Positions 1-22,006 of a DNA stretch of 64,000 nt are shown here, piece by piece. The position numbers and the translations under genes were made by a program. The notes below the pieces were generated by a model. That model did no database searches. It was not told where the DNA came from and saw only the letters and a list, made by a program, of their open reading frames with translations. The stretch covers positions 54,497-118,496 of the forward strand of contig CAIOTF010000014.1 of NCBI GenBank assembly GCA_903861125.1, written 5' to 3'. Each line of letters begins with the position of its first letter. Position 1 is the stretch's first letter. This DNA is from an uncultured Ignavibacteriota bacterium (GTDB lineage: Bacteria > Bacteroidota > Ignavibacteria > UBA10030 > UBA8401).

Positions 1-2053
1 AATTTATAACCCGACCGATTTTTACGTTACTAGGGATGAGTTCACAAAGCGGATACCATTTTTAGATTCGTTGGGGAACATCTTTCCGGACCCGAATAAT
101 CCAGGTTTTCCTTATTACTCTGATGACCCGCGTTTGGGTTCAAATAGTTCGCCCTATTATTTCAATCCGCTCGGTCGAAAACTTACATATAGGAATTTCG
201 GTTTCGTTCAGGCTCCAACCATCGATAGGCTTGGAAAACCTTCAGGGGACAGTGCTTTAATTCCGCTGAACACAAGCCAATCCTATAATATCCAGGGAAA
301 TCTTGCGTATCGCTTATCTTCAACGATGCGTTTGAAATATGAAGTTGTCTACGATAATGCGGAAAGCAAAAGTGCGTCATATTATGCCTTCCGGTTCAAT
401 CCGGACGGTAGACCGACCAATTACAGTAATGGCCTCGTTCAGGCATTGGATTGGACGCATACATTAAGCAATTCCATGTTCTATACTATCAAACTTTCTT
501 CCGGATACAGTGAAGATAAAACGTATGCGTATGAAAATATCAATGATCCTCGCTACCTTCCTGCATTCTACCAAACGACATTGCCGATCGTCGGATTTTA
601 TACCGGCGGTGTTTCGCTCGGCAGAACATTCCGCACATCGCAATCAAATGGCGGGAAGATCGATCTGCAGGCGCAATTGTTCGGCGATCATGAAGTGAAA
701 GTAGGAGCCGAAGTACGTCTTCATACCATTAAACTGGAATCGTACGATCTTGAATTTTACGATGTGAATAATCCAAGCCGCATCGTGGATGATTTTCAGG
801 ATGTGTACAGCGACAGTATAAAATATGCTGCCCGTAAACCTGACGTGAAATCAGGATATATAAATTTCGAGAAAACACCGAAACAGATTTCGATGTATGT
901 TCAGGACAAAATCGAACTTGAAAAATCGCTGATACTGAATGTCGGATTGCGGTACGAATATTTTGATCCGGCATCGAAGTTCAATCCGAAATTAAGCGAT
1001 GCACTTTCTGCCCGTGACACCACATTCCTTACCAAAGATCTTGTCAACGCAGAAGTGAAACACACATTCAGCCCTCGTATCAGCATCGCGTATCCGATTA
1101 CTGATCAAGGAGTGATCCGGTTCTCCTACGGTCACTTTTATCAGCTTGGCAATCTGTCATCACTGTATACAAATTCAAATTTCCGCGTGGCAGGTTCACA
1201 GCCGATTTTTGGAAACGCAGATGTAAAACCGCAGCGAAGTGTTCAATATGAAATAGGTCTTCAACAGGGATTAACGCCTGATCTCCGGTTGGAGGTTGTC
1301 GGGTTCTACAAAGATGTCCGCGATTATATCTTCAGGCAAATCGTCGTTACGGCAAAAGGGGATATCTCATACGAAGTATTGACCAACTTGGATTATGCGA
1401 ATTCACGCGGTCTTACAGTTTCTCTTTATCAAAGAAGAATGCCGGGAAGCATTTTCTCTTCTTCGATTGATTATACGTTCTCTGTAGCGGAGGGGAATAG
1501 AACAGAACCACGTGCCGACTTTTTCTTCAGCGAAAAGTCTGGAAAGAGTGCGGAAACATTTCTTGTCCCTCAGAGTTTCGACAGAACACACATCCTGAAT
1601 ACGACGATGAATTTCAGCGAATCTGATAATTACTCCGTAAGTCTTATCAGCCGTATGCAATCCGGCGCGCCGTATACTGCAAGTATTCCTGCCAGTCTTG
1701 CAACACAGCTTTCGCAGTTCATTCAGAACAGTTCAGTAAAGCCGTTCCAATGGTCCGTTGATGTGAAGATGGAAAAATATATTATGTTCGGTGGTTTCCG
1801 GTATTCATTATTTGTGCAAGTGGATAATCTTTTCGATACACGAAGCGAAACCGATGTGTACTCGAACAGTGGTAAAGCATTATATAATGCAAATCAAGTG
1901 GCAAATCCGAAGGAGTTTCAGGATATCCGACATAGGATAACCAATGGTGATCCCGGCATGATTCCGTTATCAGCTGTCGATAATTATTATATGAATCCCC
2001 AAAATGTCAGTCGTCCGCGCTTAGCTCGCTTCGGCTTTTCAGTACTTTTTTAA
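1..2053 (+). CDS. Outer-membrane beta-barrel protein, probably the C-terminal part of a TonB-dependent receptor; the 5' end is truncated by the window edge
   Basis: The frame is open from nt 2 with no stop, and the first in-frame start candidate is TTG at 71. The alternating amphipathic beta-strand pattern and the C-terminal ...RFGFSVLF ending in Phe are the usual barrel signature. The gene lies directly upstream of a large surface protein, as in receptor/cargo loci. Confidence 0.5.
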   Translation, partial: IYNPTDFYVTRDEFTKRIPFLDSLGNIFPDPNNPGFPYYSDDPRLGSNSSPYYFNPLGRKLTYRNFGFVQAPTIDRLGKPSGDSALIPLNTSQSYNIQGNLAYRLSSTMRLKYEVVYDNAESKSASYYAFRFNPDGRPTNYSNGLVQALDWTHTLSNSMFYTIKLSSGYSEDKTYAYENINDPRYLPAFYQTTLPIVGFYTGGVSLGRTFRTSQSNGGKIDLQAQLFGDHEVKVGAEVRLHTIKLESYDLEFYDVNNPSRIVDDFQDVYSDSIKYAARKPDVKSGYINFEKTPKQISMYVQDKIELEKSLILNVGLRYEYFDPASKFNPKLSDALSARDTTFLTKDLVNAEVKHTFSPRISIAYPITDQGVIRFSYGHFYQLGNLSSLYTNSNFRVAGSQPIFGNADVKPQRSVQYEIGLQQGLTPDLRLEVVGFYKDVRDYIFRQIVVTAKGDISYEVLTNLDYANSRGLTVSLYQRRMPGSIFSSSIDYTFSVAEGNRTEPRADFFFSEKSGKSAETFLVPQSFDRTHILNTTMNFSESDNYSVSLISRMQSGAPYTASIPASLATQLSQFIQNSSVKPFQWSVDVKMEKYIMFGGFRYSLFVQVDNLFDTRSETDVYSNSGKALYNANQVANPKEFQDIRHRITNGDPGMIPLSAVDNYYMNPQNVSRPRLARFGFSVLF

Positions 2054-2060
2054 ATAGATC

Positions 2061-5000
2061 ATGAACAAGGGAACTATTCGTATGAAGAAAAGTTTGTTAA
2101 TAACTCTTCTGGTTTTATTTTCAATAGCAGCATCACAGGAATCGAAGATCGACTTCCGCACTGCCGATATCAAATTTATGAATAAGCAGCAGCTGCGCGA
2201 ATTTCAGCGCTGGCGTGAAGACCAGTTCCGAATGATGAAATCGTCGGGCATGCAGTCCGAAGTGAAGAGTCTTGTAATTCAGGGAAATAAGATTCGTTCT
2301 ATTATTTACAACACAGGCGCCATCAGTAATCCCGGTGTTACAGGGAACGTGTTGGATCTTGTATGGAATGGTCTTGGCTATGGGTATGAGTTTGGTCCGC
2401 TCGTCACTTCCCGCGTTCCTCGGTCTGCTAATCCTAATGATTCAGTGAATATTGTTATTGACGGATTCGGAGGATCGAGTCGAAGCACAGCAGACGGTGA
2501 TTTTGCTCCCGATGGAGTTACCAAATGGGGCTGGCTGCCCAAAGGAGGGTATTCAGCGGCTGGACAAAATGATCTTGCCAGTTGGGGTGCACGAACATCT
2601 GACCTTCGAATCAAACCGAAATCGTGGCCGGAAACATGGTATAATTCCATTATAGGTGAATATATCTATCCTTCGTTCCTTGGTGGTAATGCAACAGTAC
2701 CGGATGAAGAAGTGTATTACGTTGTAGATGACTCAACGGATGCTGAATTTGATTATTTCCCGATGACAAGCAATACTGCTCATCGTGGACTTGGTATTAA
2801 TTTGGAAGTAAGGACATTTCAATTTGCAAATCCTTTGGCCGAAGATATTATTTTTCTTGTTTATACCGCAGAGAATGATCCAAAATCAAAAATGCTTCCA
2901 AAAGTCTATTTTGGTATGTTTGGCGACCCGCACGTTGGTGGTTATAATAATTTTGCAGATGATGCCGCAGAATTTATTCCTGCCCGCCCAATCGGTATTT
3001 CGGCATTTGATATGCGCTTGATACAGGACGGGAAAACAACTACTCCGTTGTCACGTAACATGGTGTATACATGGGATCCGGACGGCAAAAGTGATGTATC
3101 TACAATTGCGCCGGGATATTTTGGATATAAATTTCTGGAAAGCCCGAATAACAGCATTGATGGAATCGACAATGATGATGACGGTTTGAAAGATGAAAGT
3201 CCATATAATGACAAAGGAACTTTTATTGATGGTGTCAACGTCCCCTTAACAACTGGTATATTTGATACAACAAAATATATTGCATTGTATGGTACACCGA
3301 AACCGCGTTGGTCCGGTGATGAAGATGGAGATTGGGATAAAGAAAAGGATGACCTTGGCGTAGATGGAATTTTTGGGACCGGCGATTTCGGAGAAGGGAA
3401 CGGTGTCCCTGATCAATTGATAGGTCCAGACGGTTCATGGCTCGGTTCGGAACCGAACTTTGGATTCCGTGATGTTAACGAATCTGATCAGATCGGTTTG
3501 AGAAGCTTTTGGTCCTTGACCTTCGGCGGTAACAATCGTCCGAAAAACGATAATTTGATGTACAACAGTATTGTTGCACAATTCGATACGGCAGCACTTT
3601 CGACACTATATAGAACAGATCCGGCTAATCTTGGTGATTATATATTTCTCTATGGTTCAGGTCCGTTTGAAATGGATCCTGGTCATCGGGAGCGTTTTTC
3701 TATTGCACTGTTGATGGGGCAGGACCTTAAAGATCTTTTGTTGAATTCTGAGACAGCACAACTAGTACTGGCGGCAAACTATCGTTTCGCGCAGCCTCCT
3801 CCAAAACCAAAAGTAACAGCTGTGGCTGGTAACGGACGCGTAACATTATATTGGGATAATTCTGCCGAGAACGCGAGTGATCCGTTTTCCGGAAAAAAAG
3901 ATTTTGAAGGATATAAAATCTATCGCAGTCAGGACTTTACATTCAAAGATGTTTTCAGTATTACCGATGGCAACGGGTATGCGTTCCTGGGCAAAGCATT
4001 GTATGATCAGCAGGCAAGGAAATCAGCATTGTGGCATCGTCCTTGGACAAAAGCTGAACAGGATAAATATCTCGGTGGGTTTATGCCGGTGGAATATCGC
4101 GGACGCTACATAAAATATTATATGGGTGAACCGAGCGATGCATCGGGTATTCTGCATGAGTATGTCGACTCGACCGTTACCAACGGAATCAACTATTATT
4201 ACGCCGTTGTATCGTTCGATCACGGTGACGACAGTCTCCAACTTCCGCCGTCTGAAAGCCAGTCGATCATTCAGCGTGATGCCGTTACGCAGGAATTCAA
4301 ATTTGATGTGAACACAGTTTCCGTCGTGCCGAATTCCGAAGCAAAAGGTCTTGTCAGTACAAAGTCAGAACTGCAAAACGGAATGTCTCTCACTCATCCA
4401 AAAGGAGCCGGTACTGGGAGCATTCATTTTAAGGTATTGAACGAATTAGCACTGACAAACGGACAGTATAAAGTAACATTTGCAAAGACGAAGGTTGGGT
4501 CTGATACGGTTATTTCCTACAGCATCCTCAGAACTACTCCAGCTGTTGAGCATGTCACTGGTAACGAAAATTTATTTATTAATTTGCAGAATAAAAATTT
4601 TGTTTCGTCCAGCGTAAAGATATATGACGGTGCCGATACCACGGCGCCGCTCGTTGCCTCCACGTCGATCTTTGCTGATTCTGCTAATGGGAGACTACGG
4701 GCAACGGCAACAGGAGTTTTATTGCGAACAAAGACCTATACCGTAGCATATCAATATTATCCTGTTGCGAACAGTAGCTATTATAAAGCGAATGATTCCA
4801 ATCCGGTATTCGACGGTATCCGAACATATTTCATAGACGATTCGCTGATGCTGGACGGGACAAACACGGGATTCACCTCGAAAGCTAACTCGGATAGTAT
4901 GTCGGTAAATATTTCTTCTACTTTCTCCACATTGAAAAATAAACTGCATCCGATCGATTATAAGATAACGTTCATGTGCACTACCGCTGATACGAATGCA

Positions 5001-5702
5001 AGCGGTAATTACAGCGCACCGGCGGATTCGTTTGTTTCGTCTGCAACATTCCCATCGGCGAATAAAGCTTATGTGAAAACGCCATTCAAAGTGGAGAACG
5101 TTACCGACACAACCAAATTGACGATCATCATCCAGGACAAAACGGGACCGTTGAATAAGGCCGGACGATGGGACCTTGGTGAAGAAATTATTATAATGGA
5201 ATTGGCGACGCCTGTTTTACAATCAAAAATATTCCATAATATATCGATAACAAAGAAGAGCAGCGTGCTCAATTATGTAATACAGGCAGGCTCTGTCTTT
5301 AATATCAAAATGAAAAAACCTTTTAATGTGAATGATGTATTCGGATTCACAACCAAAGCGATGACGTACAATGCAGCGATTGGTGATCAGCAGCTGCAGA
5401 ATATAATTGTTGTACCGAATCCTTATGTGATCAGTAGTGCATTCGAATTACCGTCGAACAGACCTGATTTACGAGGGGATAGAGCCCTTCAGTTCAGAAA
5501 CCTTCCGAAGGAATGCACGATCCGTATCTACACTATCACAGGGGAATTGGTACAGACACTACGAAAAAATGATAACACTTCATATATGAACTGGGACCTT
5601 CTTTCATCTGAAAGCGCTCGTGTCGGGTATGGTGTTTATATTTATCATATTGAAACGCCGACCGGCGGTACGAAGATCGGTCGTCTTGGAATCATTAAAT
5701 AA
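2061..5702 (+). CDS. Large secreted cell-surface protein (1213 aa) with a type A T9SS C-terminal sorting domain; function unknown
   Basis: N-terminal signal peptide MKKSLLITLLVLFSIAASQ. Acidic DGIDNDDDGLKDE, which is Ca-binding-like. The last ~80 aa (VVPNPYV...IRIYTITGELV...GVYIYHIETPTGGTKIGRLGIIK) fit a Por secretion tail. Confidence 0.65.
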   Translation: MNKGTIRMKKSLLITLLVLFSIAASQESKIDFRTADIKFMNKQQLREFQRWREDQFRMMKSSGMQSEVKSLVIQGNKIRSIIYNTGAISNPGVTGNVLDLVWNGLGYGYEFGPLVTSRVPRSANPNDSVNIVIDGFGGSSRSTADGDFAPDGVTKWGWLPKGGYSAAGQNDLASWGARTSDLRIKPKSWPETWYNSIIGEYIYPSFLGGNATVPDEEVYYVVDDSTDAEFDYFPMTSNTAHRGLGINLEVRTFQFANPLAEDIIFLVYTAENDPKSKMLPKVYFGMFGDPHVGGYNNFADDAAEFIPARPIGISAFDMRLIQDGKTTTPLSRNMVYTWDPDGKSDVSTIAPGYFGYKFLESPNNSIDGIDNDDDGLKDESPYNDKGTFIDGVNVPLTTGIFDTTKYIALYGTPKPRWSGDEDGDWDKEKDDLGVDGIFGTGDFGEGNGVPDQLIGPDGSWLGSEPNFGFRDVNESDQIGLRSFWSLTFGGNNRPKNDNLMYNSIVAQFDTAALSTLYRTDPANLGDYIFLYGSGPFEMDPGHRERFSIALLMGQDLKDLLLNSETAQLVLAANYRFAQPPPKPKVTAVAGNGRVTLYWDNSAENASDPFSGKKDFEGYKIYRSQDFTFKDVFSITDGNGYAFLGKALYDQQARKSALWHRPWTKAEQDKYLGGFMPVEYRGRYIKYYMGEPSDASGILHEYVDSTVTNGINYYYAVVSFDHGDDSLQLPPSESQSIIQRDAVTQEFKFDVNTVSVVPNSEAKGLVSTKSELQNGMSLTHPKGAGTGSIHFKVLNELALTNGQYKVTFAKTKVGSDTVISYSILRTTPAVEHVTGNENLFINLQNKNFVSSSVKIYDGADTTAPLVASTSIFADSANGRLRATATGVLLRTKTYTVAYQYYPVANSSYYKANDSNPVFDGIRTYFIDDSLMLDGTNTGFTSKANSDSMSVNISSTFSTLKNKLHPIDYKITFMCTTADTNASGNYSAPADSFVSSATFPSANKAYVKTPFKVENVTDTTKLTIIIQDKTGPLNKAGRWDLGEEIIIMELATPVLQSKIFHNISITKKSSVLNYVIQAGSVFNIKMKKPFNVNDVFGFTTKAMTYNAAIGDQQLQNIIVVPNPYVISSAFELPSNRPDLRGDRALQFRNLPKECTIRIYTITGELVQTLRKNDNTSYMNWDLLSSESARVGYGVYIYHIETPTGGTKIGRLGIIK

Positions 5703-5722
5703 AAACCTGGAGAACTGGCTCA

Positions 5723-6756
5723 TGAAATTTGCTATTCGTTTATCGGTAATCGTACTTGTTCTCGCTACGGTACATGTTGCCTCTGCGCAGATCAGCAGAA
5801 CGACAACAAAAGTAGGGACGACTGTAGCGCAGTTCCTTAAAATCGGGGCCGGTGCGCGTGCCGTTGCAATGGGAGGCAGCGCTGCCGCAATGGATGGGGA
5901 TGTTTATTCCATTTACTGGAATCCTGGTTCTCTTGCCCGTCTTAAAACGCCCGGAGAAGCTTCGTTCAATCATACTCAGTGGCTCGCCGACATCAACTAT
6001 AACTATGCAGCTGCCGGTTTAACGATTGATGGCGTAGGAACACTCGGACTTTCTGTAACGTCGGTCACTATGCCTGAAGAAATTGTCCGGACTGAAATCA
6101 ATCCAGAGGGTGACGGACGTCGGTGGAGCTATAGCGCATTCGCTATGGGACTTTCTTTTGCCCGATCCTTAACAGACAGATTTTCGATCGGATTCACGAC
6201 TAAATATGTTCATGAAGGTATTTGGAATATGGCTGCTTCCGGATTTGCTTTCGATATTGGAACGATCTATACGACCACGTTCAATGGTTTGAAAATCGGT
6301 GCTAGTATTTCCAATTTCGGAACAAAAATGAGACTAGACGGACAGGATATTTCGTTCAATAATTTCCCGACAGGTGAACAGGGTCAAGGTCCGCAAAATA
6401 TCCAATCGTTATATAAAACAGAAGCGTATGATATTCCATTACAATTCCGCATCGGTTTTGCGATGGATGTACTGAATATGGATGTCATTCGGGCTACGGC
6501 TTCGGTCGATGCAACGCATCCGAACGATAACGTGGAATACGTAAATTCGGGTATGGAATTGGCATACGATGAAATGTTCTTTGCCCGCGTGGGATATAAT
6601 TCAATGTTCAATGAAAATTCCGAACAGGGATTAACCTGGGGTGTTGGTATGTATTTCCAGGTGACAAATCTCAACGGCATTAAAGTTGATTACGCATTTG
6701 CCGACCAGGGACGTCTCACTAATGTGCAATATGTTTCAGTGAGTGTGACCTACTAA
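5723..6756 (+). CDS. FadL/TodX/PorV-like outer-membrane beta-barrel protein (possible T9SS PorV/PorQ-family shuttle)
   Basis: The ATG at 5723 gives a clean signal peptide MKFAIRLSVIVLVLATVHVASAQ, whereas the ORF-track start at 5620 overlaps the upstream gene. The N-terminal motif GAGARAVAMGGSAAAMDGDVYSIYWNPGSLA resembles the FadL-family consensus (G-L-G-R-A-x-S-G-E-A-A...N-P-A). The C-terminus is aromatic-rich. Confidence 0.5.
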
Positions 6757-6781: not shown

Positions 6782-6826
6782 GACCTTGCAGAGAATAATT
6801 CTTTGCAAGGTCTTTTTATTTTAAGT
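6782..6826 (+). terminator. Rho-independent terminator downstream of the barrel gene
   Basis: Hairpin gaccttgcagag...ctttgcaaggtc followed by tctttttatttt. Confidence 0.5.
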
Positions 6827-7250: not shown

Positions 7251-9161
7251 TTATTTAACCATTAACATTTTAATGTTCTTCTCAACGTTACCGGCCTTCA
7301 TTGTTGCAATATAAGCACCCGTTGCAACCGTTTTGCCGCTCTTATCTTTTCCATTCCATGTAACATTGTGCGAACCTTTTGCATACTCTTCATTGTTTGC
7401 CAATGTTACAACTTCCTTGCCGAGCATATCATAAACGCGTAAAGAAATTTTCTTGGTCAAGGGGAGAACAAAATTGATTGTTGTCGACGGGTTGAACGGA
7501 TTCGGGAAATTCTGATTCAACTCGTAATCGTCCGGAGTGATCACTGTAAGATCTTTCGTGGAGACCGATCCTACGACATCTGCTTCTAACGATCTGATGA
7601 TCCATTTCTTAGCGTTGGTCACATTCTTTGATGAATCCACGACGAATGCCTGTGTATTAATGTCGAATTTCTGCCAGGAATATGTCGTTGAATCTATCAA
7701 CGCCTGATAAGGAAGAATAACTTCCATCTTGCCATCACCATCAACATCCATTGGTTTGGACATTTTTGATACAAAACCTTCACCGAGTGTTTTTACTGTA
7801 TCCTTAATTCCCATAGAATCACGATAACTAACTGTTGCAAGAATATCAGCTTCGCCTTTATAATACACTTTGCGGATGTAACTTGACGAGTCTCTCAGTG
7901 AACCGGTCCCTTTATATTCAATGGCAACCACATTACTGGGATACGATGAACCAACAAGGATCTCTGATTTTCCATTTCTGTCGAGGTCAGCGACAACACC
8001 GGTAAAATTAGACATTCCTACACCCGACGTTGTTTGAGCAACTTTCGCTGCTATACGGACTGCATGTGTCGAATCAGATTTCTGAACATTATCGCTGGTG
8101 TTATAGTCAACAACATACATAGCACCGTCAAGATCACTCAAACCGCCATACAGAGGAAAATACACTTCAAAATTTTTATCCTTGTCAAGGTCTGCAACTA
8201 CTCCGCCGAATAATGCAACATAATCATTACCGGGGGTCATTTGATAATATTGATTGTTATTTACCGGAGCTGTAGTGTCCGGCATAACATACGTATCCGG
8301 TCCGGTTACTTTTATTACCCAATAATCAGAAAAATTCCAATTATGGCAGACAATTTCCATTTTCCCGTCGCCATTAAGGTCGGCAGGATGAACGGCATAC
8401 GGAGATCCGCCGCCGAATTTAGAACTCGCCATCAGGAGTGAACTTCCTTCAATTTCAAATGTTGCGAAACCCTGACTTTCGAAATCCCATCCGCCGACAG
8501 CATGGATAATCAGAAAATCATCATTTGCAGATCCTGTAACATTTTTGGGTGTCAATAATTCCTGTTGTCCGTCACCGTCAACATCGGTTACTTCAAACTG
8601 TTCTACCGTCAGTTGCAGACCAATTTCAACCGGTGTTCCTGCCCGCGTACCGAAATTTGCACCATACGCAACAGTATTTGATATCATTGCTGAAGGAACT
8701 TTTCCAAATTTGTGGCTGCCATTGACACCGTCCCATTCAAAAATTAGGATACCGCCCGCTGTACCGGCGCGGGGGAATATAATTTCGCCTCTACCATCGC
8801 CATCCATATCGCCTGAGCGGATAGTTCGTGGAGTTGAACTGCCTCCAGCACCATACGGAAGACCTGCCAGGGTATCTAAACGCGGAGAAGACCAAATCCA
8901 TTCCAATGTATCGTTTCCTGCTGCCTGGAAGACGTGAACACGACCAGTTTTAGTATAATCAGTTATAATAATTTCAGGTTTTCCATCGTGGTCGAGATCG
9001 GGAGCGACCCAGCATCCGCGGACACCAATATCGCCGAAATATGCACTGTCAGGTTTAACAAACGTCTTTTTTGGAACAAATTTTGCGCCTACGTGGGTCT
9101 GACCGAAGGCAAACGCCGCGACCAAGATGGATAAAAAAATCAGTATATTTGTTCTTTTCAT
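7251..9161 (-). CDS. Secreted protein with FG-GAP/integrin-like repeats and a type A T9SS C-terminal sorting domain
   Basis: Signal peptide MKRTNILIFLSILVAAFAFGQ. At least 7 repeats of the D-x-D/N-x-D-G-x-x-E-I/L Ca-binding FG-GAP motif (DLDHDGKPEII, DMDGDGRGEII, DVDGDGQQELL, DLNGDGKMEIV, DLDRNGKSEIL, DVDGDGKMEVI). C-terminal NFPNPFNPSTTINF...LRVYDMLGKEV...GAYIATMKAG matches a Por_Secre_tail. Confidence 0.7.
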   Translation of the reverse strand: MKRTNILIFLSILVAAFAFGQTHVGAKFVPKKTFVKPDSAYFGDIGVRGCWVAPDLDHDGKPEIIITDYTKTGRVHVFQAAGNDTLEWIWSSPRLDTLAGLPYGAGGSSTPRTIRSGDMDGDGRGEIIFPRAGTAGGILIFEWDGVNGSHKFGKVPSAMISNTVAYGANFGTRAGTPVEIGLQLTVEQFEVTDVDGDGQQELLTPKNVTGSANDDFLIIHAVGGWDFESQGFATFEIEGSSLLMASSKFGGGSPYAVHPADLNGDGKMEIVCHNWNFSDYWVIKVTGPDTYVMPDTTAPVNNNQYYQMTPGNDYVALFGGVVADLDKDKNFEVYFPLYGGLSDLDGAMYVVDYNTSDNVQKSDSTHAVRIAAKVAQTTSGVGMSNFTGVVADLDRNGKSEILVGSSYPSNVVAIEYKGTGSLRDSSSYIRKVYYKGEADILATVSYRDSMGIKDTVKTLGEGFVSKMSKPMDVDGDGKMEVILPYQALIDSTTYSWQKFDINTQAFVVDSSKNVTNAKKWIIRSLEADVVGSVSTKDLTVITPDDYELNQNFPNPFNPSTTINFVLPLTKKISLRVYDMLGKEVVTLANNEEYAKGSHNVTWNGKDKSGKTVATGAYIATMKAGNVEKNIKMLMVK

Positions 9162-12097: not shown

Positions 12098-13132
12098 TTA
12101 ATTTCCATTGAACGATTGCTGCAAAATCATGTCAATACGCGAAAGAACCGAGCCGATAGGAATCTCATCAAATGTACACATTTTTGGATCGCCGGGACAT
12201 CGCTGCTGGCAAAATCCTGCGGTCGGTTCTATCACTTCCGATCTGTTTCCAAGTGAACCCCACAATTTTGACGAACAAGCAGGAAGAGGACAAAACATTG
12301 TTACTGTGGGTACTTTTAATGCGGCAGCAATATGCTGTGTACCGGTGCTGGATGAGACCAACACTGAAAGCATGCTGCAGAGTGCAATCAATTCCCGAAG
12401 GTCGCTACCCGAATAGACAATATGCTTTTTTTTGAATTGTTCGAATTGGTTCTCCATATGAGTGTTTGCAACACCAATATTGATGAACAATTGGTGTCGA
12501 TCTGAGAGTTTTTCGCACAGATTTACATATTGTTCAGGTTTCCAGTTCGGCACTGAATTATTTGAACTGGGATTGATACCAATAACCGGTTTATCCGGAT
12601 CGAAGCCTCGTTCAGCCAAAAAATTCTTCGCGTGTTCTTTTTCTTCGTTAGTGACAAATAATTCTGTTGCGATATCATCGACAGTTATGCCGATCTTTCT
12701 GCCAAGATCCATCACATAGTCAGCCTCGTGACGAAGAGGAATGTATTTATTTCTGCTCACTGTTTTTGTTCCGGTGAGGATCTGATAAATTTTTCCACCA
12801 ACCCCGATCCGCTGTTGTATTCCTGCAAGGAACATCATCCATGCATGCCGTTCACGCGGTAGCGGCATTAGTCCTGTATCGAACTTCAGCGAACGCAGAT
12901 GAGCAACTTGATTCCAAAACCCCTTTCTTCCAGAATTAGCACCGTGCGGATCGTCGGTAATCAGAAGGTCAATGTTAGGGTTATTCTTAAGCAAAACGCC
13001 TGAAACTGAATTTACCATCACACCGACAAAGGAATTCGGAAACGATTGTTTCACAGCGCGGATGAGAGGAGTTGTGAGAACAACATCACCGATACGGTCC
13101 GGACGGATGATAAGAATTCGGCGTGGTGTCAT
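12098..13132 (-). CDS. Glycosyltransferase family 9 (heptosyltransferase-like)
   Basis: RILIIRPDRIGDVVLTTPLIRAVKQSFPNSFVGVMV and VSSSTGTQHIAAALKVPTVTMFCP. Confidence 0.75.
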   Translation of the reverse strand: MTPRRILIIRPDRIGDVVLTTPLIRAVKQSFPNSFVGVMVNSVSGVLLKNNPNIDLLITDDPHGANSGRKGFWNQVAHLRSLKFDTGLMPLPRERHAWMMFLAGIQQRIGVGGKIYQILTGTKTVSRNKYIPLRHEADYVMDLGRKIGITVDDIATELFVTNEEKEHAKNFLAERGFDPDKPVIGINPSSNNSVPNWKPEQYVNLCEKLSDRHQLFINIGVANTHMENQFEQFKKKHIVYSGSDLRELIALCSMLSVLVSSSTGTQHIAAALKVPTVTMFCPLPACSSKLWGSLGNRSEVIEPTAGFCQQRCPGDPKMCTFDEIPIGSVLSRIDMILQQSFNGN

Positions 13133-14160
13133 TGCAGAACTTGTTTATAGACAGCAAGTGTTTTTTCTGCTACGGTGCTCCAAAGGAATTCCTTTTTAAT
13201 ATGTTCTCTGAGGGCCGAAGTCTTTTGAGCATTCAACGCATGTATAATGCCATTCCTGATCGATTCTACGGAACGCGGTTCAACATAAACCGCATGTGAT
13301 TCGAAATAATCTTTGGTGCCGCCGTACGGAGTGATAACAATCTTTGCTCCGGCAAGTGCTGCTTCGAGAGCCGCAATACCGGGTGTCTCAAAAAGAGAAG
13401 GAAGGGCGAAAACACTGCATGCTGCATATGCCGAGGCAAGCATTTCTGAATCGTTCTCAAGTCCGTCAATGAGGAGAATGTTCTTCGAAAGTTTTGTCTC
13501 TTCCAGACATTGTTTTCCTTCGGAAGTTCCTGAGATTTTTCCGATGATGACTGCCGGATGATCGACATTTTTTAACGCTTTGATGAGTTGAAGTACATTC
13601 TTTCGTGCGGGACCGATATGACCGACATTAAGAATGAAATTATCGATGCCGTATTTTTTTTTGAACAAAGAAGGATCACCGTGTTCAAAGCGTGCTTCAA
13701 CTCCGTTGGGCACAACCGATATCTTTCCGGGTGCAATACCTAATCCGTTACCAAGCAGTGTTGCCTCATCACGCGTATTCGGCAGAACTGATTTAGACCA
13801 ATTGCAAATCTGCTGCGTATAATCATAACTCGTCCAGATACCGGATTTGAAATGTTTCAAAGTCTTTGATATCCCGAGGATCGTCCGGATATATGCCGGA
13901 GAATGCTCGGTGAAAAAAATCGATGAACTTACGAAGGGAATATTGAAATTATTCATTACACTTGCCAAATGAAATGTTCCCAGGTTAGCCGAGAATAGAT
14001 GAACGAGATCGCACGATGTGCGGTCAAACTGTTCCCACGGATGGAAAAGGGAGACATGTACGCCGAGTTTTTCCAGTTCATTCTTTGTTTGCAGGATCTG
14101 GACACGCGGTCCGCCATGCAGCAGGGATAATGATTGATATGTTGCAAAAGTTATGTTCAT
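13129..14160 (-). CDS. Glycosyltransferase family 4 (GT-B, group 1)
   Basis: C-terminal E-x7-E region ETPGIAALEAALAGAKIVITPYGGTKDYF. There are 4-nt overlaps with both neighbouring genes. Confidence 0.7.
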   Translation of the reverse strand: MNITFATYQSLSLLHGGPRVQILQTKNELEKLGVHVSLFHPWEQFDRTSCDLVHLFSANLGTFHLASVMNNFNIPFVSSSIFFTEHSPAYIRTILGISKTLKHFKSGIWTSYDYTQQICNWSKSVLPNTRDEATLLGNGLGIAPGKISVVPNGVEARFEHGDPSLFKKKYGIDNFILNVGHIGPARKNVLQLIKALKNVDHPAVIIGKISGTSEGKQCLEETKLSKNILLIDGLENDSEMLASAYAACSVFALPSLFETPGIAALEAALAGAKIVITPYGGTKDYFESHAVYVEPRSVESIRNGIIHALNAQKTSALREHIKKEFLWSTVAEKTLAVYKQVLQ

Positions 14161-15680
14161 TCAGTAGTCTTTATCCACCAATCAAGTGCATTCTGAAGTA
14201 TATGACGTGCATCGAATGTGCGGGAACTCATAATATTTTTAGGTGATTCTATCTCTCTTTTGACCATGGTGAAGGAAACTTTGTTCAAATCAATTTTCCC
14301 ATTGATGCTGATGATTGCTTCACTGAGATCAGGTAAAATGATACGGCAGTAAGTGTCACCCGACGAAGATTCTATCGTTCCGTCTGAAAATCTTAATTGT
14401 GGAAGCGTTGAAGACCGTTGTTTCCACCAGTCTGAATATTGTGTATACGAAAGTTTCAGAATATTTCGCTCGTTAATATAACGAAAAACTTCTTCAAAGA
14501 CTCCGTTGTGTTCATGCGTGGGGTGATGATACAGACAGATCGGTTCGTTTAGCAGTATGTTTGTATCGATCACAGTCCGGTAATGTGCCGCCATTTCCTC
14601 ATCGCTCATCCGGGCGCGAAGCATCGTCCCGATACAGACCGGATGGATGGGGAGCTGCGGGAACGGTAGAAACCGGTTCTTCATGAACGGATATGAAGGG
14701 AGATTATCGTAATCATATGCAAATTCGGATGAATATTGAAATCCGAGCGACTCAATAGCCTCTGCATATTCTTTGTTCCATTCACCTGTGGGTGCTGTAA
14801 TGCCCTTTGGATTCAGATTGTTCTTACGGAGAAGCATAAGTGCTTTTTCGAAATTCTCTCTGTTCAATATTGTGCTGCGGTGCAGCAGATGTTCATAACA
14901 ATGAACGCCGATCTCCTGGTGCTCGAATTTTTTGAAATAGGGAAGCCACGATTCATGGCTTTTTACGTCCAGGAACCATGTGGTTGGAATATAGTGGCGC
15001 TCGCTCAACTGATAGATCTGTTCGATCTGACTTTGCGTACCCTTGTCTGAATCGATCCTCATCGTGAATACAGTCGGTTCGGAATCGGGGTAATACCATT
15101 GATGAACAAAGGGCATCTGTTGAAGATGATGAAGTTTCTGTATTAGAGAAAAGATCAGTTGTCTTAGCGTGCCTTTGCTGCGCAAGGCCACAGTTTCGTT
15201 GGGCATTCTTCCGGTATTTCGGTAGAAATTATTTCTTTGCGAATTAGTAGAGATAGCCACATTGATATCTATCCCAAGGTATGCTTTCCATCCATCGCCG
15301 AATGGTTCAACGTCGGCAAAGTCGTTATTATGGAAAAAAGAAACGCGGGAAAACAAATCAAGGATGCCGTTGAATTGGTAGAGATCATTTTTTGATGGCG
15401 GTAAAGAGCGAACGAATGATTTCGATACGGTCCTGTCATCTACTGCATTTACAGAATTCGTTGTATACAACACGGATCCGCCGCGGCGAACAAAATCCTC
15501 TAAACTAGTTTGCAGGAACGTATCCATTGTGCCGTTGACAATGATAACGGAAAAATCATTCAGCAGGTTAGAACCATCTGACACAACAGAAAAAGGAATG
15601 CCGATCTGGCGTAAGACCAATTCCCAGACCGGTTCGTAACGAACCAACCCGATCTGCATTATGAAAGGATTATTTCGCAT
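14157..15680 (-). CDS. Hypothetical protein with a divergent polysaccharide-deacetylase-like (CE4/NodB-fold) signature
   Basis: Loose matches to CE4 motifs: RIDSD, HCYEH (an H-x3-H), and LYHHPTHE. It sits between two GT4 genes. The similarity is weak. Confidence 0.35.
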   Translation of the reverse strand: MRNNPFIMQIGLVRYEPVWELVLRQIGIPFSVVSDGSNLLNDFSVIIVNGTMDTFLQTSLEDFVRRGGSVLYTTNSVNAVDDRTVSKSFVRSLPPSKNDLYQFNGILDLFSRVSFFHNNDFADVEPFGDGWKAYLGIDINVAISTNSQRNNFYRNTGRMPNETVALRSKGTLRQLIFSLIQKLHHLQQMPFVHQWYYPDSEPTVFTMRIDSDKGTQSQIEQIYQLSERHYIPTTWFLDVKSHESWLPYFKKFEHQEIGVHCYEHLLHRSTILNRENFEKALMLLRKNNLNPKGITAPTGEWNKEYAEAIESLGFQYSSEFAYDYDNLPSYPFMKNRFLPFPQLPIHPVCIGTMLRARMSDEEMAAHYRTVIDTNILLNEPICLYHHPTHEHNGVFEEVFRYINERNILKLSYTQYSDWWKQRSSTLPQLRFSDGTIESSSGDTYCRIILPDLSEAIISINGKIDLNKVSFTMVKREIESPKNIMSSRTFDARHILQNALDWWIKTTE

Positions 15681-16653: not shown

Positions 16654-16664
16654 GAAAGATCAGT

Positions 16665-17558
16665 CTAAAGACTAAACGTGATCGAAAATATATGGTTGGG
16701 GGAAAAGGCCCCGCTCATTGGAACGAAAGCGTAATCCAATCGAAGAATGCCGTATAGAACACCCGCACCTGTCGAAAATGATTTCGTCTCATATCCGGTT
16801 TGATATCCTCCGCGCAGCATGAACATTGAATCGTACACAGCCTCGGCTCCCAGTTGCAGATGAGTACCGTCGTCGTTCAATGTTTTTACGGCATCGCCGG
16901 CAGTGAGCAACAAAATTTCATTTGTAAGCGACAAGCCATAGGAAGCGCCAATCCGAACGGTTGTAGGAAGCACCGAACGTTCTGAACGTAAAATACCCAT
17001 CTTCCCGAGGTTAAGAAGGCTCATGCCGATATTAAGATTATCGAGTGCTTTATAGAAAATGCCGGCGTCAAATCCATAACCGCTTGCTTCATCAACGAAG
17101 ATCTTTTCATATAGTAATTTCCCGGTGAGACCGACCGTCAACTTATCCGATACAGAAAAAGCAGCGCCGATACCAAGGGCACCGTTGCGGGCTCCGAATG
17201 TTCCTTCGGCATCACCGGGGCGCAAGCGGACTTCAATGTTATTCACAGAAGTTGTATATGCAGAAATCCCGATTGAAACATCATTTCCCGGTATAGTTGC
17301 ACCGATATAATCAGCGGTTGTTTCGGCAAAACCTTGCCGATGGCTTATCATTAATTGTCGACCGGAGAAACGAATCGACGCAGGATTATAACCATACGAA
17401 GAGTGATCGTTAGTCACCGAAGTAAATGATTCACCCATTGCTACGGAACGAGCATCATTTCCTTGTTTGAGGAACGTCAAACCGGTATTGATACTTTGAG
17501 CGAAAGCAGAAAACGAGCAGAAGAGGAGAATAAATAATATGGTTCGTATCTTCGTCAT
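16665..17558 (-). CDS. FadL/PorV-like outer-membrane beta-barrel protein
   Basis: Signal peptide MTKIRTILFILLFCSFSAFAQ. N-terminal motif ARSVAMGESFTSVTNDHSSYGYNPASI is shared with ORFs 5723-6756 and 17555-18526. C-terminal aromatic residue. Confidence 0.5.
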   Translation of the reverse strand: MTKIRTILFILLFCSFSAFAQSINTGLTFLKQGNDARSVAMGESFTSVTNDHSSYGYNPASIRFSGRQLMISHRQGFAETTADYIGATIPGNDVSIGISAYTTSVNNIEVRLRPGDAEGTFGARNGALGIGAAFSVSDKLTVGLTGKLLYEKIFVDEASGYGFDAGIFYKALDNLNIGMSLLNLGKMGILRSERSVLPTTVRIGASYGLSLTNEILLLTAGDAVKTLNDDGTHLQLGAEAVYDSMFMLRGGYQTGYETKSFSTGAGVLYGILRLDYAFVPMSGAFSPNHIFSITFSL

Positions 17559-18526
17559 ATTCTTATCGAAAGAGAAATTACGTGAATGGAGAACAGACCG
17601 TACGGTTCAAGAATATAGGCATAATTCACAGAAGGTTTCCAATCCGTATAATCCGTCCGTACGGTAAATCCGAAAGAGGGGTGAGCTTGATCGGGTTTTT
17701 TCAGATCCCAACCGTCGATACCGGCACGAATGGTTATTGCTTCTATCGGGGTGACTTCGCCGCCAGCACGAATGATCAGAGTGGATCTGTTGCTACGTTC
17801 AAGTTCCGCTGAAAGCAATCCTCCAAAATCATCGAAGGCATAGGAGATACCCACTGCTTGCCGTTCCGGGAATTTATCGATAGTTGAATTTCCCAGCTGT
17901 CCGTAAAGATCGGAGGTATCCCATCGGTATTTTGCATTCACATCTTTATATGTACCGGCGATCATTAGTTTTGAGGTGATAGGATAGATGAAACCGAAAT
18001 CAAATCCGGCTCCGGTGGATGACAGTTTATCGAAAAGAGAGAAATAATATAATTTTGTTGTGAGTCCAATCGTCAATTTCCTGATCCGTAGTGCGAACGA
18101 CAGGGAGAATTGATTTTCGGAAACGGAATAGGTCTCAGTTTTGTAACCATCGTTATCCCGTCCGTCGATGTTTGACACTCCTGCATTAAGAATACCGAAT
18201 GAAATTCCGGCATTGGTATCGATCGGTTGAGAATAGTAGATCGAATTCAAACTTCGGTCGAGCGACAATATACCGTACGAAACAGACGCACTGTTGTTTT
18301 TCAGCAGGGCAATGGCGGCCGGATTATAGTAACCGGAATTCTCTCCTTCTTTTACAGCAGTTAAAGCATTTCCCATGCCCATTCCTCTTGCACCGAAACC
18401 CATGCGCGAAAATGCTCCGGGAGTTCCTGCAAGTTGTGCCGATGAGATTACGGTACACAACAATAATGCTGCCGATAGTATGGTTGCTCTATTGAATGAC
18501 AAGTATTTTTCCCCAGCGTGGTTCAT
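17555..18526 (-). CDS. FadL/PorV-like outer-membrane beta-barrel protein (paralog of the gene downstream)
   Basis: Signal peptide ...AALLLCTVISSAQ. Motif GARGMGMGNALTAVKEGENSGYYNPAAIA. The annotated start overlaps the upstream gene by 38 nt, so the true start may be later. Confidence 0.5.
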   Translation of the reverse strand: MNHAGEKYLSFNRATILSAALLLCTVISSAQLAGTPGAFSRMGFGARGMGMGNALTAVKEGENSGYYNPAAIALLKNNSASVSYGILSLDRSLNSIYYSQPIDTNAGISFGILNAGVSNIDGRDNDGYKTETYSVSENQFSLSFALRIRKLTIGLTTKLYYFSLFDKLSSTGAGFDFGFIYPITSKLMIAGTYKDVNAKYRWDTSDLYGQLGNSTIDKFPERQAVGISYAFDDFGGLLSAELERSNRSTLIIRAGGEVTPIEAITIRAGIDGWDLKKPDQAHPSFGFTVRTDYTDWKPSVNYAYILEPYGLFSIHVISLSIRI

Positions 18527-20051
18527 CGTTGTCTATTACGATCTGATAAAAATATACACCATTGGTAACCAAAGAGTTGTTCTCATTTCTTCCATCCCAT
18601 AGTTCGTCATGTTCGCGCGTAGATTCGCGTACTGCGTTCTGAACGACGGTCCGGACTAGATTCATTCCAAAATCAAAAATACGTAACGTTACTTTGGCAG
18701 CCGACGGTTTTCCTGTTGCATAATGGATGCGCACTGTCTCGTCGTCCGGTGCAAAAGGATTCGGATATGCATATGTTTCCGAGGTGGACGGAAGTTTTAA
18801 TGATGCGTGTAGGATCGTCCAATTGCTGCCGAACGGTGTATTGATGTTGTCGATCGTCTTCACTGCACCGTCAGCGCCGCCAAACCAGGCGGTGTCGCCC
18901 GATGATGCAGCCGCAAAGAATTTGCTCTGTGTATACCGTTGACGTGTAGACTTATCGTAGATCGATCCTGTCTGTATCCAGGATTGTCCGAAGTCGCTTG
19001 AACGGAAGATACCGTTGTCTGTCGGAACATACACAACATCTCCCTTGAAACCGAAATTGTGAGGGAATTCTCCGAGCAATGCTTGTTTCCACGAGATACC
19101 GCCATCTTCGGTAAAACTGACGCCGCGTTTTTCAGTATTGTCCGAAGCATTTATTGTCGCTGCCCAGATGATATTTTTTGTTGAAGTTTTTTGCTTGCCT
19201 ATGCCCACAATAAAATTGCCTGAAATGGGATTGAGTTGAGTTTGTTTGGTAAATTTCGTCCAGGACAATCCTCTATTTGTTGTTTTATTGATGCCGCCGG
19301 CCGATCCAATCCAAACCGTGGAATCGTTCTCCGCAAAAACAGAGAATGCCCTGTGGTTCAAATTGTTCTGCAATCCTAATGCTCCGCCGGAAGGAGAGAG
19401 ATCGAAGACGAGAGAATCATTCGGTGAGATGGATGTAAGATTATCCGGCGGCAGGATGACGCGTTTCCATGTTTTGCCGGTATCGTTTGTCACTCGCGCC
19501 ATGCCGGCGAACGAGCAGATATAAACGGAACTTCCTGCAATGGCGATATCGTACGTGATATTATTGATCGCCGTTGTAATTCCTAATGCGCGGATCGTGC
19601 TTTTCGAATTCCAGAATAACGTATCAACATTTTTTGTATCCAATGGCTGCGCGATTACTTTCCACGTCTCACCGCCGTCAGAAGAATACCGCAATCCGCT
19701 TCCTTCTGGTAAGGATTGGTTATCACGCACCACAGAGTGTGCGGTTGCAACCCACACATTTTTCCCTCTTACTGCCAATGCCGAAATATCTTCTTTGCCG
19801 AATTCCGGTGAATCATAATAATTTTTCCAGGTTCGTCCGCCGTCCGCCGATCTGCTCAAGCCTTTACCGGTGCCGAGCCAAATTGTATCATTACTGATGA
19901 CGATATCGGTAATGCTGTTGCCTGCCTGAAGCGTCGGTAATGAATTTGATTGTGAAAGCTTGAACGATTGTTCTGAAAGAATGTGTGGCTGTGCAATCGC
20001 AATTCTCAGACACGCAAATATATATAGCAAACGTGAAATAGGTTTTTTCAT
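18489..20051 (-). CDS. BNR/Asp-box repeat beta-propeller protein with a type A T9SS C-terminal sorting domain
   Basis: Signal peptide. At least 5 S-x-D-x-G-x-T/S-W repeats (SADGGRTWK, SSDGGETWK, TNDTGKTWK, TNRGLSWT, SSDFGQSWI). C-terminal YAYPNPFAPDDETVRIHY...GVYFYQIVIDNDEPRWGKILVIQ. Confidence 0.65.
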   Translation of the reverse strand: MKKPISRLLYIFACLRIAIAQPHILSEQSFKLSQSNSLPTLQAGNSITDIVISNDTIWLGTGKGLSRSADGGRTWKNYYDSPEFGKEDISALAVRGKNVWVATAHSVVRDNQSLPEGSGLRYSSDGGETWKVIAQPLDTKNVDTLFWNSKSTIRALGITTAINNITYDIAIAGSSVYICSFAGMARVTNDTGKTWKRVILPPDNLTSISPNDSLVFDLSPSGGALGLQNNLNHRAFSVFAENDSTVWIGSAGGINKTTNRGLSWTKFTKQTQLNPISGNFIVGIGKQKTSTKNIIWAATINASDNTEKRGVSFTEDGGISWKQALLGEFPHNFGFKGDVVYVPTDNGIFRSSDFGQSWIQTGSIYDKSTRQRYTQSKFFAAASSGDTAWFGGADGAVKTIDNINTPFGSNWTILHASLKLPSTSETYAYPNPFAPDDETVRIHYATGKPSAAKVTLRIFDFGMNLVRTVVQNAVRESTREHDELWDGRNENNSLVTNGVYFYQIVIDNDEPRWGKILVIQ

Positions 20052-22003: not shown

Positions 22004-22006
22004 AAT

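Follow-up and report, generated by a model that had tools for sequence, protein, structure and literature searches.

A PorV-like barrel at the end of a TonB-receptor operon in an Ignavibacteriota bacterium, and its candidate role as partner of a large CTD-bearing protein

Introduction

What is a PorV-like outer-membrane barrel doing immediately downstream of one particular secreted protein? The question is raised by a stretch of 64,000 nucleotides (the window) from an uncultured Ignavibacteriota bacterium (GenBank assembly GCA_903861125.1, contig CAIOTF010000014.1, positions 54,497 to 118,496 of the forward strand), in which a gene for a 344-residue barrel, here called P1, follows one for a 1213-residue protein with a C-terminal domain (CTD) resembling type IX secretion system (T9SS) sorting signals. 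PorV-family barrels are known as T9SS carriers and anchors of Bacteroidia; here one subfamily is coupled with a TonB-dependent receptor and a large unannotated family, which spans the Ignavibacteria and beyond and has its own conserved CTD subtype. An earlier, sequence-only reading of the window had seen in P1 one of three paralogous barrels (P1, P2, and P3), each lying next to a gene with a type A sorting domain, and had proposed that these barrels are shuttles or outer-membrane partners dedicated to their cargo. The reading that we favor, at a probability of roughly 55%, is that P1 is a dedicated outer-membrane partner that holds the 1213-residue protein by its retained CTD beside a TonB-dependent transporter.

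P1 is a member of the PorV/PorQ family

The gene and its translation start region are as follows.

5722..6756, plus strand: P1, a 344-residue outer-membrane barrel of the PorV/PorQ family with a signal peptide, a hatch motif, 14 predicted strands, and a C-terminal tyrosine
5709..5712, plus strand: ribosome-binding site GGAG, 9 nt 5' of the P1 ATG, from direct reading of the sequence

The frame opens at the ATG at 5722, which lies 19 nt past the stop codon of the open reading frame (ORF) for the 1213-residue protein, and closes with the stop codon at 6754-6756; the frame as a whole is open from 5620 to 6756. The start at 5723 given earlier was one base off, and reading from there meets 17 stops. 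The signal peptide ends in ...VHVASA/Q, and P1 is Sec-exported.

On the NCBIfam model for the PorV/PorQ family (NF033709), P1 scores 208.9 bits against a cut-off of 90 and covers profile positions 1-325 of 326; it also matches the Pfam PorV family (PF19572) at 42.5 bits. It stays below the cut-offs (given after each score) of the equivalog models for PorV (NF033710; 90.9 bits, 250), PorQ (NF033711; 85.2 bits, 220), and PorV2 (NF052325; 93.4 bits, 325), and its alignment to the PorV equivalog is limited to the N-terminal ~200 residues. At E<=0.01 P1 matches neither Pfam Toluene_X (PF03349; gathering score 29.7 bits) nor the BamG model NF053685, and it has no match to PorP/SprF (PF11751; gathering score 22.3 bits). 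Its homologs in the databases, from metagenome-assembled genomes (MAGs) of Ignavibacteria and Bacteroidota, are named "PorV/PorQ family protein." The family is a known one, already named by annotation pipelines.

The sequence-only reading had asked whether these proteins would form a 14-stranded barrel with a hatch, and this is what the AlphaFold2 model of P1 predicts (pLDDT 84, pTM 0.78), with 14 long strands and an N-terminal hatch of short helices. In a Foldseek search with this model, PorV comes out at the top (8gl6_F; E=3.5e-16, TM-score 0.68), a second PorV structure, 6h3i_F, is also retrieved, and FadL/TodX structures (E ~1e-9, TM-score 0.54-0.59) and BamG (E ~2e-8) rank lower. A profile of P1 orthologs searched against the PDB finds Flavobacterium johnsoniae PorV (6h3i_F; E=3e-18), and FadL chains are absent at E<=1. 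Thus, as modeled, P1 would be a 14-stranded barrel of the FadL superfamily whose nearest relative among solved structures is PorV. A grouping with FadL/TodX transporters had earlier been named as an outcome that would count against the partner idea; the family model, the ortholog profile, and the Foldseek ranking all place P1 on the PorV/PorQ side instead. The N-terminal signature that had first drawn attention to these barrels corresponds to the FadL-superfamily hatch motif, NPA element included. P1 reads ARAVAMGG...YWNPG where F. johnsoniae PorV has ARAAGLG...WNPA at the aligned position, and the FadL mutants N33A, P34A, and delta-NPA (PDB entries) are among the structural matches of P1.

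This kinship with FadL could point to a different function, namely that P1 is a FadL-type channel for hydrophobic substrates, which would act in uptake together with the TonB receptor of its operon and have no specific link to the CTD-bearing protein or to type IX secretion. The superfamily fold, the NPA-type motif (YWNPG) kept in the hatch, the operon shared with an importer, and the weak Toluene_X matches seen in Pfam scans of some P1 homologs would all suit such a channel. We nevertheless regard it as very unlikely: P1 itself has no Toluene_X match, its ortholog profile retrieves no FadL chain, PorV is clearly the better structural match, and a lipid channel would leave unexplained why the barrel gene always comes after a protein with a conserved, dedicated CTD.

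P1 closes an operon headed by a TonB-dependent receptor

Upstream and downstream of P1, the following features complete the transcription unit.

1..2053, plus strand: TonB-dependent receptor, 3' two-thirds, heading the operon and truncated at the left window edge
2061..5702, plus strand: 1213-residue secreted protein of an unannotated family, with a signal peptide and no lipobox Cys
5391..5699 (boundaries approximate), plus strand: family-specific, type-A-like CTD of the 1213-residue protein, with a ~13-residue insertion relative to canonical CTDs
6782..6822 (also given as 6782-6812), plus strand: intrinsic-terminator-like hairpin with a 14-bp stem and a T-run, 26 nt past the P1 stop

Because the intergenic gaps are short (8 nt between the receptor and the 1213-residue ORF, 19 nt between the latter and P1) and a terminator follows P1, the three genes form an operon in the order TonB-dependent receptor, 1213-residue protein, PorV-like barrel. 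The receptor fragment represents the C-terminal ~680 residues and matches Pfam TonB_dep_Rec_b-barrel (105.7 bits) and OMP_b-brl_4 (81.4 bits). Its frame has no upstream stop, and the listed TTG start (71) is a product of the truncation at the window edge. The full receptor can be seen in a relative (loci L081 and L082) with a P1 ortholog that is 88% identical: it has 990 residues and consists of CarboxypepD_reg, Plug, and barrel. No SusC/RagA (TIGR04056-type) match is among the NCBIfam matches listed for the receptor. Its presence at the head of the operon likely moves the role of P1 from that of a secretion shuttle to that of a surface anchor in an uptake module.

Close relatives have a second pair further 5': directly before the receptor in L081 and L082 (1-3258) there is a paralogous 1199-residue protein with the same CTD subtype, together with a 338-residue barrel. 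The latter scores 220.9 bits on the PorV/PorQ family model and 23.8 bits on the BamG model, the cut-off of which is 250 (L082). The genome from which the window derives probably has this pair of 1199- and 338-residue proteins too, just past the left edge.

The 1213-residue protein carries a distinct CTD subtype

The likely true start of the large protein is Met8 at 2082, where a 100% identical database entry begins, and this gives a product of 1206 residues. It has a signal peptidase I signal ending in ...AAS/Q. The protein has no Pfam family, no sequence match in the PDB, and no SusD match, and all its homologs are labeled "hypothetical." Its approximate domain order is a galactose-mutarotase-like supersandwich core, an FN3-like region, a variable beta-sandwich region, and the CTD at the C-terminus. 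The structural model is moderate (pLDDT 75, pTM 0.56), and its top Foldseek match is PorZ (5m11), probably via the CTD part.

Inserted in the supersandwich core are acidic, D-rich loops (DGIDNDDDG, GDEDGDWD, and DDLGVDG; 3141-3515, plus strand, mature residues ~336-460), which resemble calcium-binding DxDxDG repeats and show 68% identity among distant orthologs. Model confidence in the loops is low, and they matched no Pfam repeat family.

Within the window, a profile of the CTD of the 1213-residue protein matches only the two other CTD-bearing ORFs, which encode proteins of 636 residues (E=9e-5) and 520 residues (E=5e-4). Since the profile finds both of these, and the alignment holds save for the ~13-residue insertion, sequence comparison supports homology of this CTD with the canonical ones. 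Among distant orthologs the CTD is 58% identical, versus 28% for the region preceding it. It is a distinct, unusually conserved subtype that lies below the curated type A thresholds. The earlier description of the 1213-residue protein as a T9SS cargo therefore stands only in part: the protein is CTD-bearing, but as a conserved, obligate neighbor with 40-80% identity across the Ignavibacteria, it is not an ordinary, interchangeable cargo. As this degree of identity is comparable to that of the barrel, we treat the protein as a conserved partner rather than a variable cargo.

A large CTD-bearing protein beside a PorV-like barrel also recalls the T9SS attachment complex. On that account, P1 would be the organism's general PorV, which shuttles type A cargo at the SprA translocon, the 1213-residue protein would be the counterpart of the sortase PorU, and the locus would be an ordinary attachment-complex locus. 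The porU and porV genes are adjacent in Bacteroidia. PorV is the best structural and sequence match of P1, the large protein is PorU-sized with a conserved CTD, the top fold match of its model is PorZ (with the reservation about the CTD made above), and homologs of SprA, PorV, and Plug have been reported in Ignavibacterium and Melioribacter (PMC11705866). Against this, P1 reaches 90.9 bits where the PorV equivalog calls for 250. We also rejected PorU as the identity of the 1213-residue protein, which matches neither Peptidase_C25 nor NF033707 nor any PDB sequence; its family alignment has no invariant Cys outside the CTD, and no PorU is among the fold matches listed. Moreover, the module is duplicated within genomes, each copy having its own TonB receptor, and it is found in diverse catabolic contexts, neither of which is expected of a single-copy core secretion component. 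A general PorV at this locus is, in our estimation, unlikely.

The triad is conserved in Ignavibacteria and beyond

A scan restricted to one genome per species yielded 80 loci, all from Ignavibacteria-type MAGs and including Ignavibacterium album (L066) and Melioribacter (L079), the neighbors being found by tblastn. The C-terminus of a homolog of the 1213-residue protein lies directly 5' of the P1 ortholog in all but one of the 76 informative loci (75/76), and the exception, L077, looks like a frameshift. Likewise, a receptor is found 5' of the large-protein gene wherever the locus is informative (56/56). Some genomes have more than one copy: in L027, L029, and L044 the opposite strand encodes a second module that includes a receptor paralog of its own, and L053 contains a second pair. 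The pairing is specific to the paralog, with the 1199-type protein going with the 338-type barrel and the 1213-type protein with the 344-type barrel.

The profile of the 1213-residue family, searched against 1.84 billion cluster representatives, recovers 7761 of them at E<=1e-3 and 935 at E<=1e-30. Their common core corresponds to profile positions ~40-820, and the distal part is variable: in four of the seven distant members scanned, a Reg_prop beta-propeller replaces the variable beta-sandwich region. The propeller members (L085 and L087; proteins P0376, P0381, P0388, and P0399) keep the core, the CTD subtype, and the triad. The same CTD subtype is present at the C-terminus of 106 of the 117 representatives of at least 900 residues, with E values of 1e-22 to 1e-33 in the eight members given individually. 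Around seven of the eight very distant relatives examined, the triad of receptor, large protein, and PorV-like barrel is again found.

L085: receptor, large protein, PorV-like barrel; no notable neighbors
L086: same triad order, both flanking genes cut by contig ends; no notable neighbors
L087: receptor, large protein, PorV-like barrel; no notable neighbors
L088: receptor, large protein, PorV-like barrel; nucleoside hydrolases with CTDs, PfkB kinase, and sugar transporter nearby
L089: receptor, large protein, PorV-like barrel; glycoside hydrolase of family GH2 nearby
L091: receptor, large protein, PorV-like barrel; glycoside hydrolases of families GH16 and GH30 nearby
L092: receptor, large protein, PorV-like barrel, in a high-GC organism; rotamase-family gene 5'
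L090 (protein P0462): no receptor and no barrel; large protein with a canonical CTD; TPR-repeat gene 5'

Because L090 has neither a receptor nor a barrel as neighbor, the triad association is not universal at the edge of the 1213-residue family. The triad barrels share 34-48% identity with P1 and among themselves, versus 17-30% with barrels of the P2 and P3 types, and on these values they group as one subfamily. The sequence-only reading had taken a lack of association with CTD genes beyond this window as the outcome that would count against it; the association is found in the Ignavibacteria loci and extends to very distant members of the family.

These counts also bear on whether the adjacency of PorV-like and CTD-bearing genes could be a coincidence in a CTD-rich genome, with the three barrels of the window being mere redundant paralogs. 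The window has ~55 genes and CTD-like ends on three of them, so that a chance neighbor of this kind would not be very rare, and P2 has no CTD-bearing neighbor at all. However, coincidence does not square with a gene order conserved in 75/76 and 56/56 loci and around 7/8 distant members; it is further contradicted by the retention of the block of P3, P2, and a propeller gene in two diverged genomes (L083 and L084), and by the barrels themselves, which are 22-27% identical and each have their own orthologs. We consider this explanation practically untenable.

A proposed role in TonB-dependent uptake

The role that we favor for P1, anchoring of the large protein at the receptor, can be laid out in four steps. 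The large protein would cross the outer membrane via its CTD. The CTD would then remain uncleaved and stay on its dedicated PorV-like barrel, in the manner of PorU on PorV and PorZ on PorQ, whose CTDs are likewise kept. The large protein would thereby be fixed on the cell surface beside the TonB-dependent transporter. There it could capture a substrate, probably glycans or other nutrients, for import, which is the role of SusD-type lipoproteins in Bacteroidia. The proposal starts from the family and predicted fold of P1, the structure of the operon, the conservation of both triad and CTD, the paralog-specific pairing, and the domain of carbohydrate-enzyme type in the large protein; from this context we infer that CTD and barrel bind each other, that the CTD is retained, that the large protein lies at the surface and works with the receptor, and what its substrate would be. 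An uptake role is hinted at by the enzymes encoded beside distant triads, namely GH16 and GH30 in L091, GH2 in L089, and the nucleoside hydrolases, kinase, and sugar transporter in L088. Precedents exist for the anchoring step: the CTD is retained on the barrel in the PorU-PorV and PorZ-PorQ pairs (PMC10202324, PMC12365241), and the FadL-like barrel BamG holds the surface protein BamH next to BamA (PMC12578637).

Several observations weigh against this proposal. On TIGR04183 (cut-off 23), the CTD of the 1213-residue protein (~100 residues) reaches 18.1 bits, and it has no match to PF18962 Por_Secre_tail (27). The scan of the window found no core T9SS genes (no SprA), only housekeeping genes, and dependence on the T9SS is therefore assumed; furthermore, for Ignavibacterium and Melioribacter, homologs of SprA, PorV, and Plug are all that one BLAST survey reports (PMC11705866). 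The neighbors of the operon in the window are glycosyltransferases of the lipopolysaccharide (LPS)-core type, not catabolic enzymes. The supersandwich fold alone is no proof of glycan binding, and the model of the 1213-residue protein is moderate. Finally, P1 keeps the hatch/NPA motif of transporting FadL channels, which may mean a transport role for the barrel itself.

The apparent shortage of T9SS components can be turned into a proposal of its own, in which the triad is a device for export and anchoring: the receptor-like barrel, powered by TonB-ExbBD, would help to free or translocate the CTD-bearing protein, the PorV-like barrel would be the carrier, and the whole would substitute for the GldLM/PorLM motor, which a BLAST survey did not detect in Ignavibacteria. 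The TonB-dependent transporter Oar is required for secretion of PopC in Myxococcus. The three genes of the triad are strictly linked, the survey gives Ignavibacterium and Melioribacter no T9SS proteins other than SprA, PorV, and Plug (PMC11705866), and freeing substrate bound to PorV from the translocon takes energy (as cited in PMC12365241). On the other hand, the receptor has the normal Plug and CarboxypepD_reg architecture typical of importers, the catabolic neighbors (GH16, GH30, GH2, nucleoside hydrolases) suit import, and the claim of no other T9SS proteins is BLAST-based only. Export powered in this way thus appears quite unlikely. A long shot, too, is the broader generalization that the triad is a self-contained, TonB-energized export and anchoring device or, more modestly, a widespread, unrecognized type of TonB-dependent uptake system that has a ~1200-residue protein, anchored by its CTD on a PorV-like barrel, in place of the SusD lipoprotein. 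If true, the TonB-energized device would be another power source for CTD-dependent secretion where the GldLM/PorLM motor is reported to be lacking.

If P1 does anchor the large protein by its CTD, the triad would represent, for TonB-dependent transporters outside Bacteroidia, a new accessory architecture, and a big family of "hypothetical" proteins would gain a first lead to its function. Type-A-like signals would likewise join type B signals under the rule that the location of a CTD-bearing protein is set by its cognate barrel. What seems to be new is the triad, along with the CTD subtype: a full-text literature search, with most subscription journals outside its reach, found no description of either. 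An apparent mention of "PorV2" in PMC10994853 turned out to be an artefact, the text "PorV" followed by the reference number 23. As the operon is present in the cultured relatives Ignavibacterium album and Melioribacter roseus, the model is directly testable.

Comparison with known systems

Like PorV, P1 is a predicted 14-strand barrel of the FadL superfamily with the hatch motif (ARA.G.G ... WNP[AG]) and is genetically linked to a CTD-bearing protein. It differs in being only ~18% identical in structural alignment and shorter (344 versus ~400 residues), in lying in a TonB-receptor operon rather than beside a C25 sortase, and in belonging to one of several paralogous modules per genome. Furthermore, whereas PorV (LptO) serves many cargos, binding the CTDs of type A proteins and the lateral opening of SprA/Sov, P1 seems reserved for a single partner. 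The PorU-PorV and PorZ-PorQ pairs, in which the CTD is kept and a PorV-family barrel holds a large surface protein, find their likeness here in the conserved CTD and the adjacent barrel gene; in contrast to PorU and PorZ, the 1213-residue partner has no C25 peptidase domain or double propeller and no sequence match to either.

The analogue named by the sequence-only reading was SprF with its type B cargo. The pairing principle is indeed the same in SprF-SprB, Fjoh_1677, and other such pairs, in which a cargo gene is followed by that of a cognate barrel that sets secretion and final location (PMC12618676, PMC9143113). However, the PorP/SprF systems combine a PF11751 barrel with a type B CTD and have no TonB receptor, whereas the P1 unit combines a PorV/PorQ barrel with a type-A-like CTD and a TonB receptor, and PorU-PorV and PorZ-PorQ are the closer parallels (PMC10202324, PMC12365241).

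On the side of the receptor, the triad resembles the SusC/SusD (RagA/RagB) pairs of polysaccharide utilization loci in that the gene of a TonB-dependent transporter carrying an N-terminal CarboxypepD_reg precedes one for a partner exposed at the surface (in the triad, putatively), and in the catabolic genes beside distant triads. Yet the partner here has ~1200 residues, is mostly beta, and has neither a SusD fold nor a lipobox, and its anchoring would rely on its CTD plus another protein, the barrel; the likeness is one of function only. BamG-BamH, in which a FadL-like 14-strand barrel lies against a larger barrel and holds a surface protein by its extracellular loops (PMC12578637), is analogous to the architecture proposed here, although BamG differs in its conserved N-terminal extension and in having BamA as its partner. 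With FadL/TodX, P1 shares the superfamily fold and the NPA-type hatch motif; the gene context differs, and the structural scores of P1 against these channels are lower than against PorV.

The other barrels of the window and their neighbors

Two further barrels and two further CTD-bearing proteins are encoded on the minus strand.

16665..17558, minus strand: P2, a 297-residue PorV/PorQ-family barrel (NF033709, 137.4 bits), of a separate subfamily leaning to PorQ
17555..18526, minus strand: P3, a 323-residue distant PorV/PorQ-like barrel (NF033709, 73.1 bits, under the cut-off of 90), of a third subfamily
18489..20051, minus strand: 520-residue BNR/Sortilin-type beta-propeller with a CTD-like C-terminus (Sortilin-Vps10 34.4 bits, FlgD_ig 22.1 bits)
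7251..9161, minus strand: 636-residue FG-GAP repeat protein with a canonical type A CTD (TIGR04183 29.4 bits, cut-off 23; FG-GAP_3; FlgD_ig)

When the hatch signature was written as a regular expression, AR..[AG]MG..(12-30)..[YW]NP[AG], and run on the 186 six-frame ORFs of at least 80 residues, it matched exactly three, 5722-6756, 16665-17558, and 17555-18526, and matched nothing in 200 residue shuffles of all ORFs. The three ORFs thus do have the N-terminal signature in common, as had been proposed, and the family hidden Markov model finds no fourth copy within the window. They are not close paralogs, however. Identity among them is 22-27% (27% between P1 and P2, 22% between P1 and P3), and they represent three old subfamilies that differ in their orthologs and in the gene context conserved around them. 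Neither P2 (PorV 54.7, PorQ 78.3, PorV2 45.9 bits) nor P3 (26.5, 55.7, and 44.6 bits) reaches an equivalog cut-off (250, 220, and 325, respectively). For Toluene_X (gathering score 29.7), P2 has no match at E<=0.01 and P3 scores 15.4 bits, and the NCBIfam scores support placing all three ORFs with PorV/PorQ and not with FadL/TodX. The homologs of P3 are mostly "hypothetical."

That each barrel sits beside a type A CTD gene is borne out for P1 and P3 with qualifications and fails for P2, which adjoins P3 and a family GT4 glycosyltransferase and no CTD gene. In the case of P1, the qualification is the divergent CTD subtype; in that of P3, the neighbor is the 520-residue protein, whose C-terminus is recognized by FlgD_ig at only 22.1 bits, below the cut-off of 27.

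P3 and P2 lie head to tail in a block that comprises, in order, a 283-residue "choice-of-anchor X" protein, the 520-residue propeller, P3, and P2. The same order is seen in the two diverged genomes L083 and L084, where the P3 orthologs are 55% and 60% identical and P2 orthologs occupy the same block. A propeller with a CTD beside two barrels in a glycan/LPS cluster has the outline of PorZ-PorQ plus a glycan supply, with the difference that there are two barrels for one CTD-bearing protein. PorZ is a propeller protein with a CTD retained on the PorQ barrel, and it handles A-LPS (PMC8545088, PMC12365241). We did not adopt PorZ as the identity of the 520-residue protein, as a phmmer search against the PDB gave weak sialidase BNR matches only, and we keep the parallel as an analogy.

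The block sits in an LPS-core/glycan cluster (12098-20899, minus strand) with three GT9 heptosyltransferases, two GT4 enzymes, a polysaccharide deacetylase-like gene, and a thioredoxin. At its 5' side (21071-24432, minus strand) are a Peptidase_M50 (310 residues), a DUF1207 protein (276 residues), and a CehA/McbA-like metallohydrolase (536 residues), the last with 79.7 bits, just under the cut-off of 80; this trio is syntenic in both L083 and L084. The 636-residue FG-GAP protein is an ordinary T9SS-type cargo outside the P1 operon. Its gene is convergent with P1 and is found near the triad in many loci, with varying position and orientation.

P2 is marginally over the gathering score of PorP_SprF (22.8 versus 22.3 bits, residues 157-278) and scores 24.8 bits on DUF5723, which hints, at the level of profile scores, at a subfamily bridging the PorV/PorQ and PorP/SprF families. 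The P3 stop and the P2 start share an ATGA-type overlap of 4 nt (17555-17558, minus strand), and the annotated P3 start overlaps the 3' end of the 520-residue gene by 38 nt (18489-18526, minus strand); these overlaps suggest either translational coupling or a slightly later true start of P3. Finally, four signal peptides of the window have Gln at the likely +1 position, those ending in AAS/Q (2061-2140), ASA/Q (5722-5790), AFA/Q (17490-17558), and SSA/Q (18430-18526). A "Bacteroidetes Q-rule" has been described, with a Q-value of 77% for Ignavibacterium album (PMC5837995), and the Gln +1 of all four predicted signal peptides fits it.

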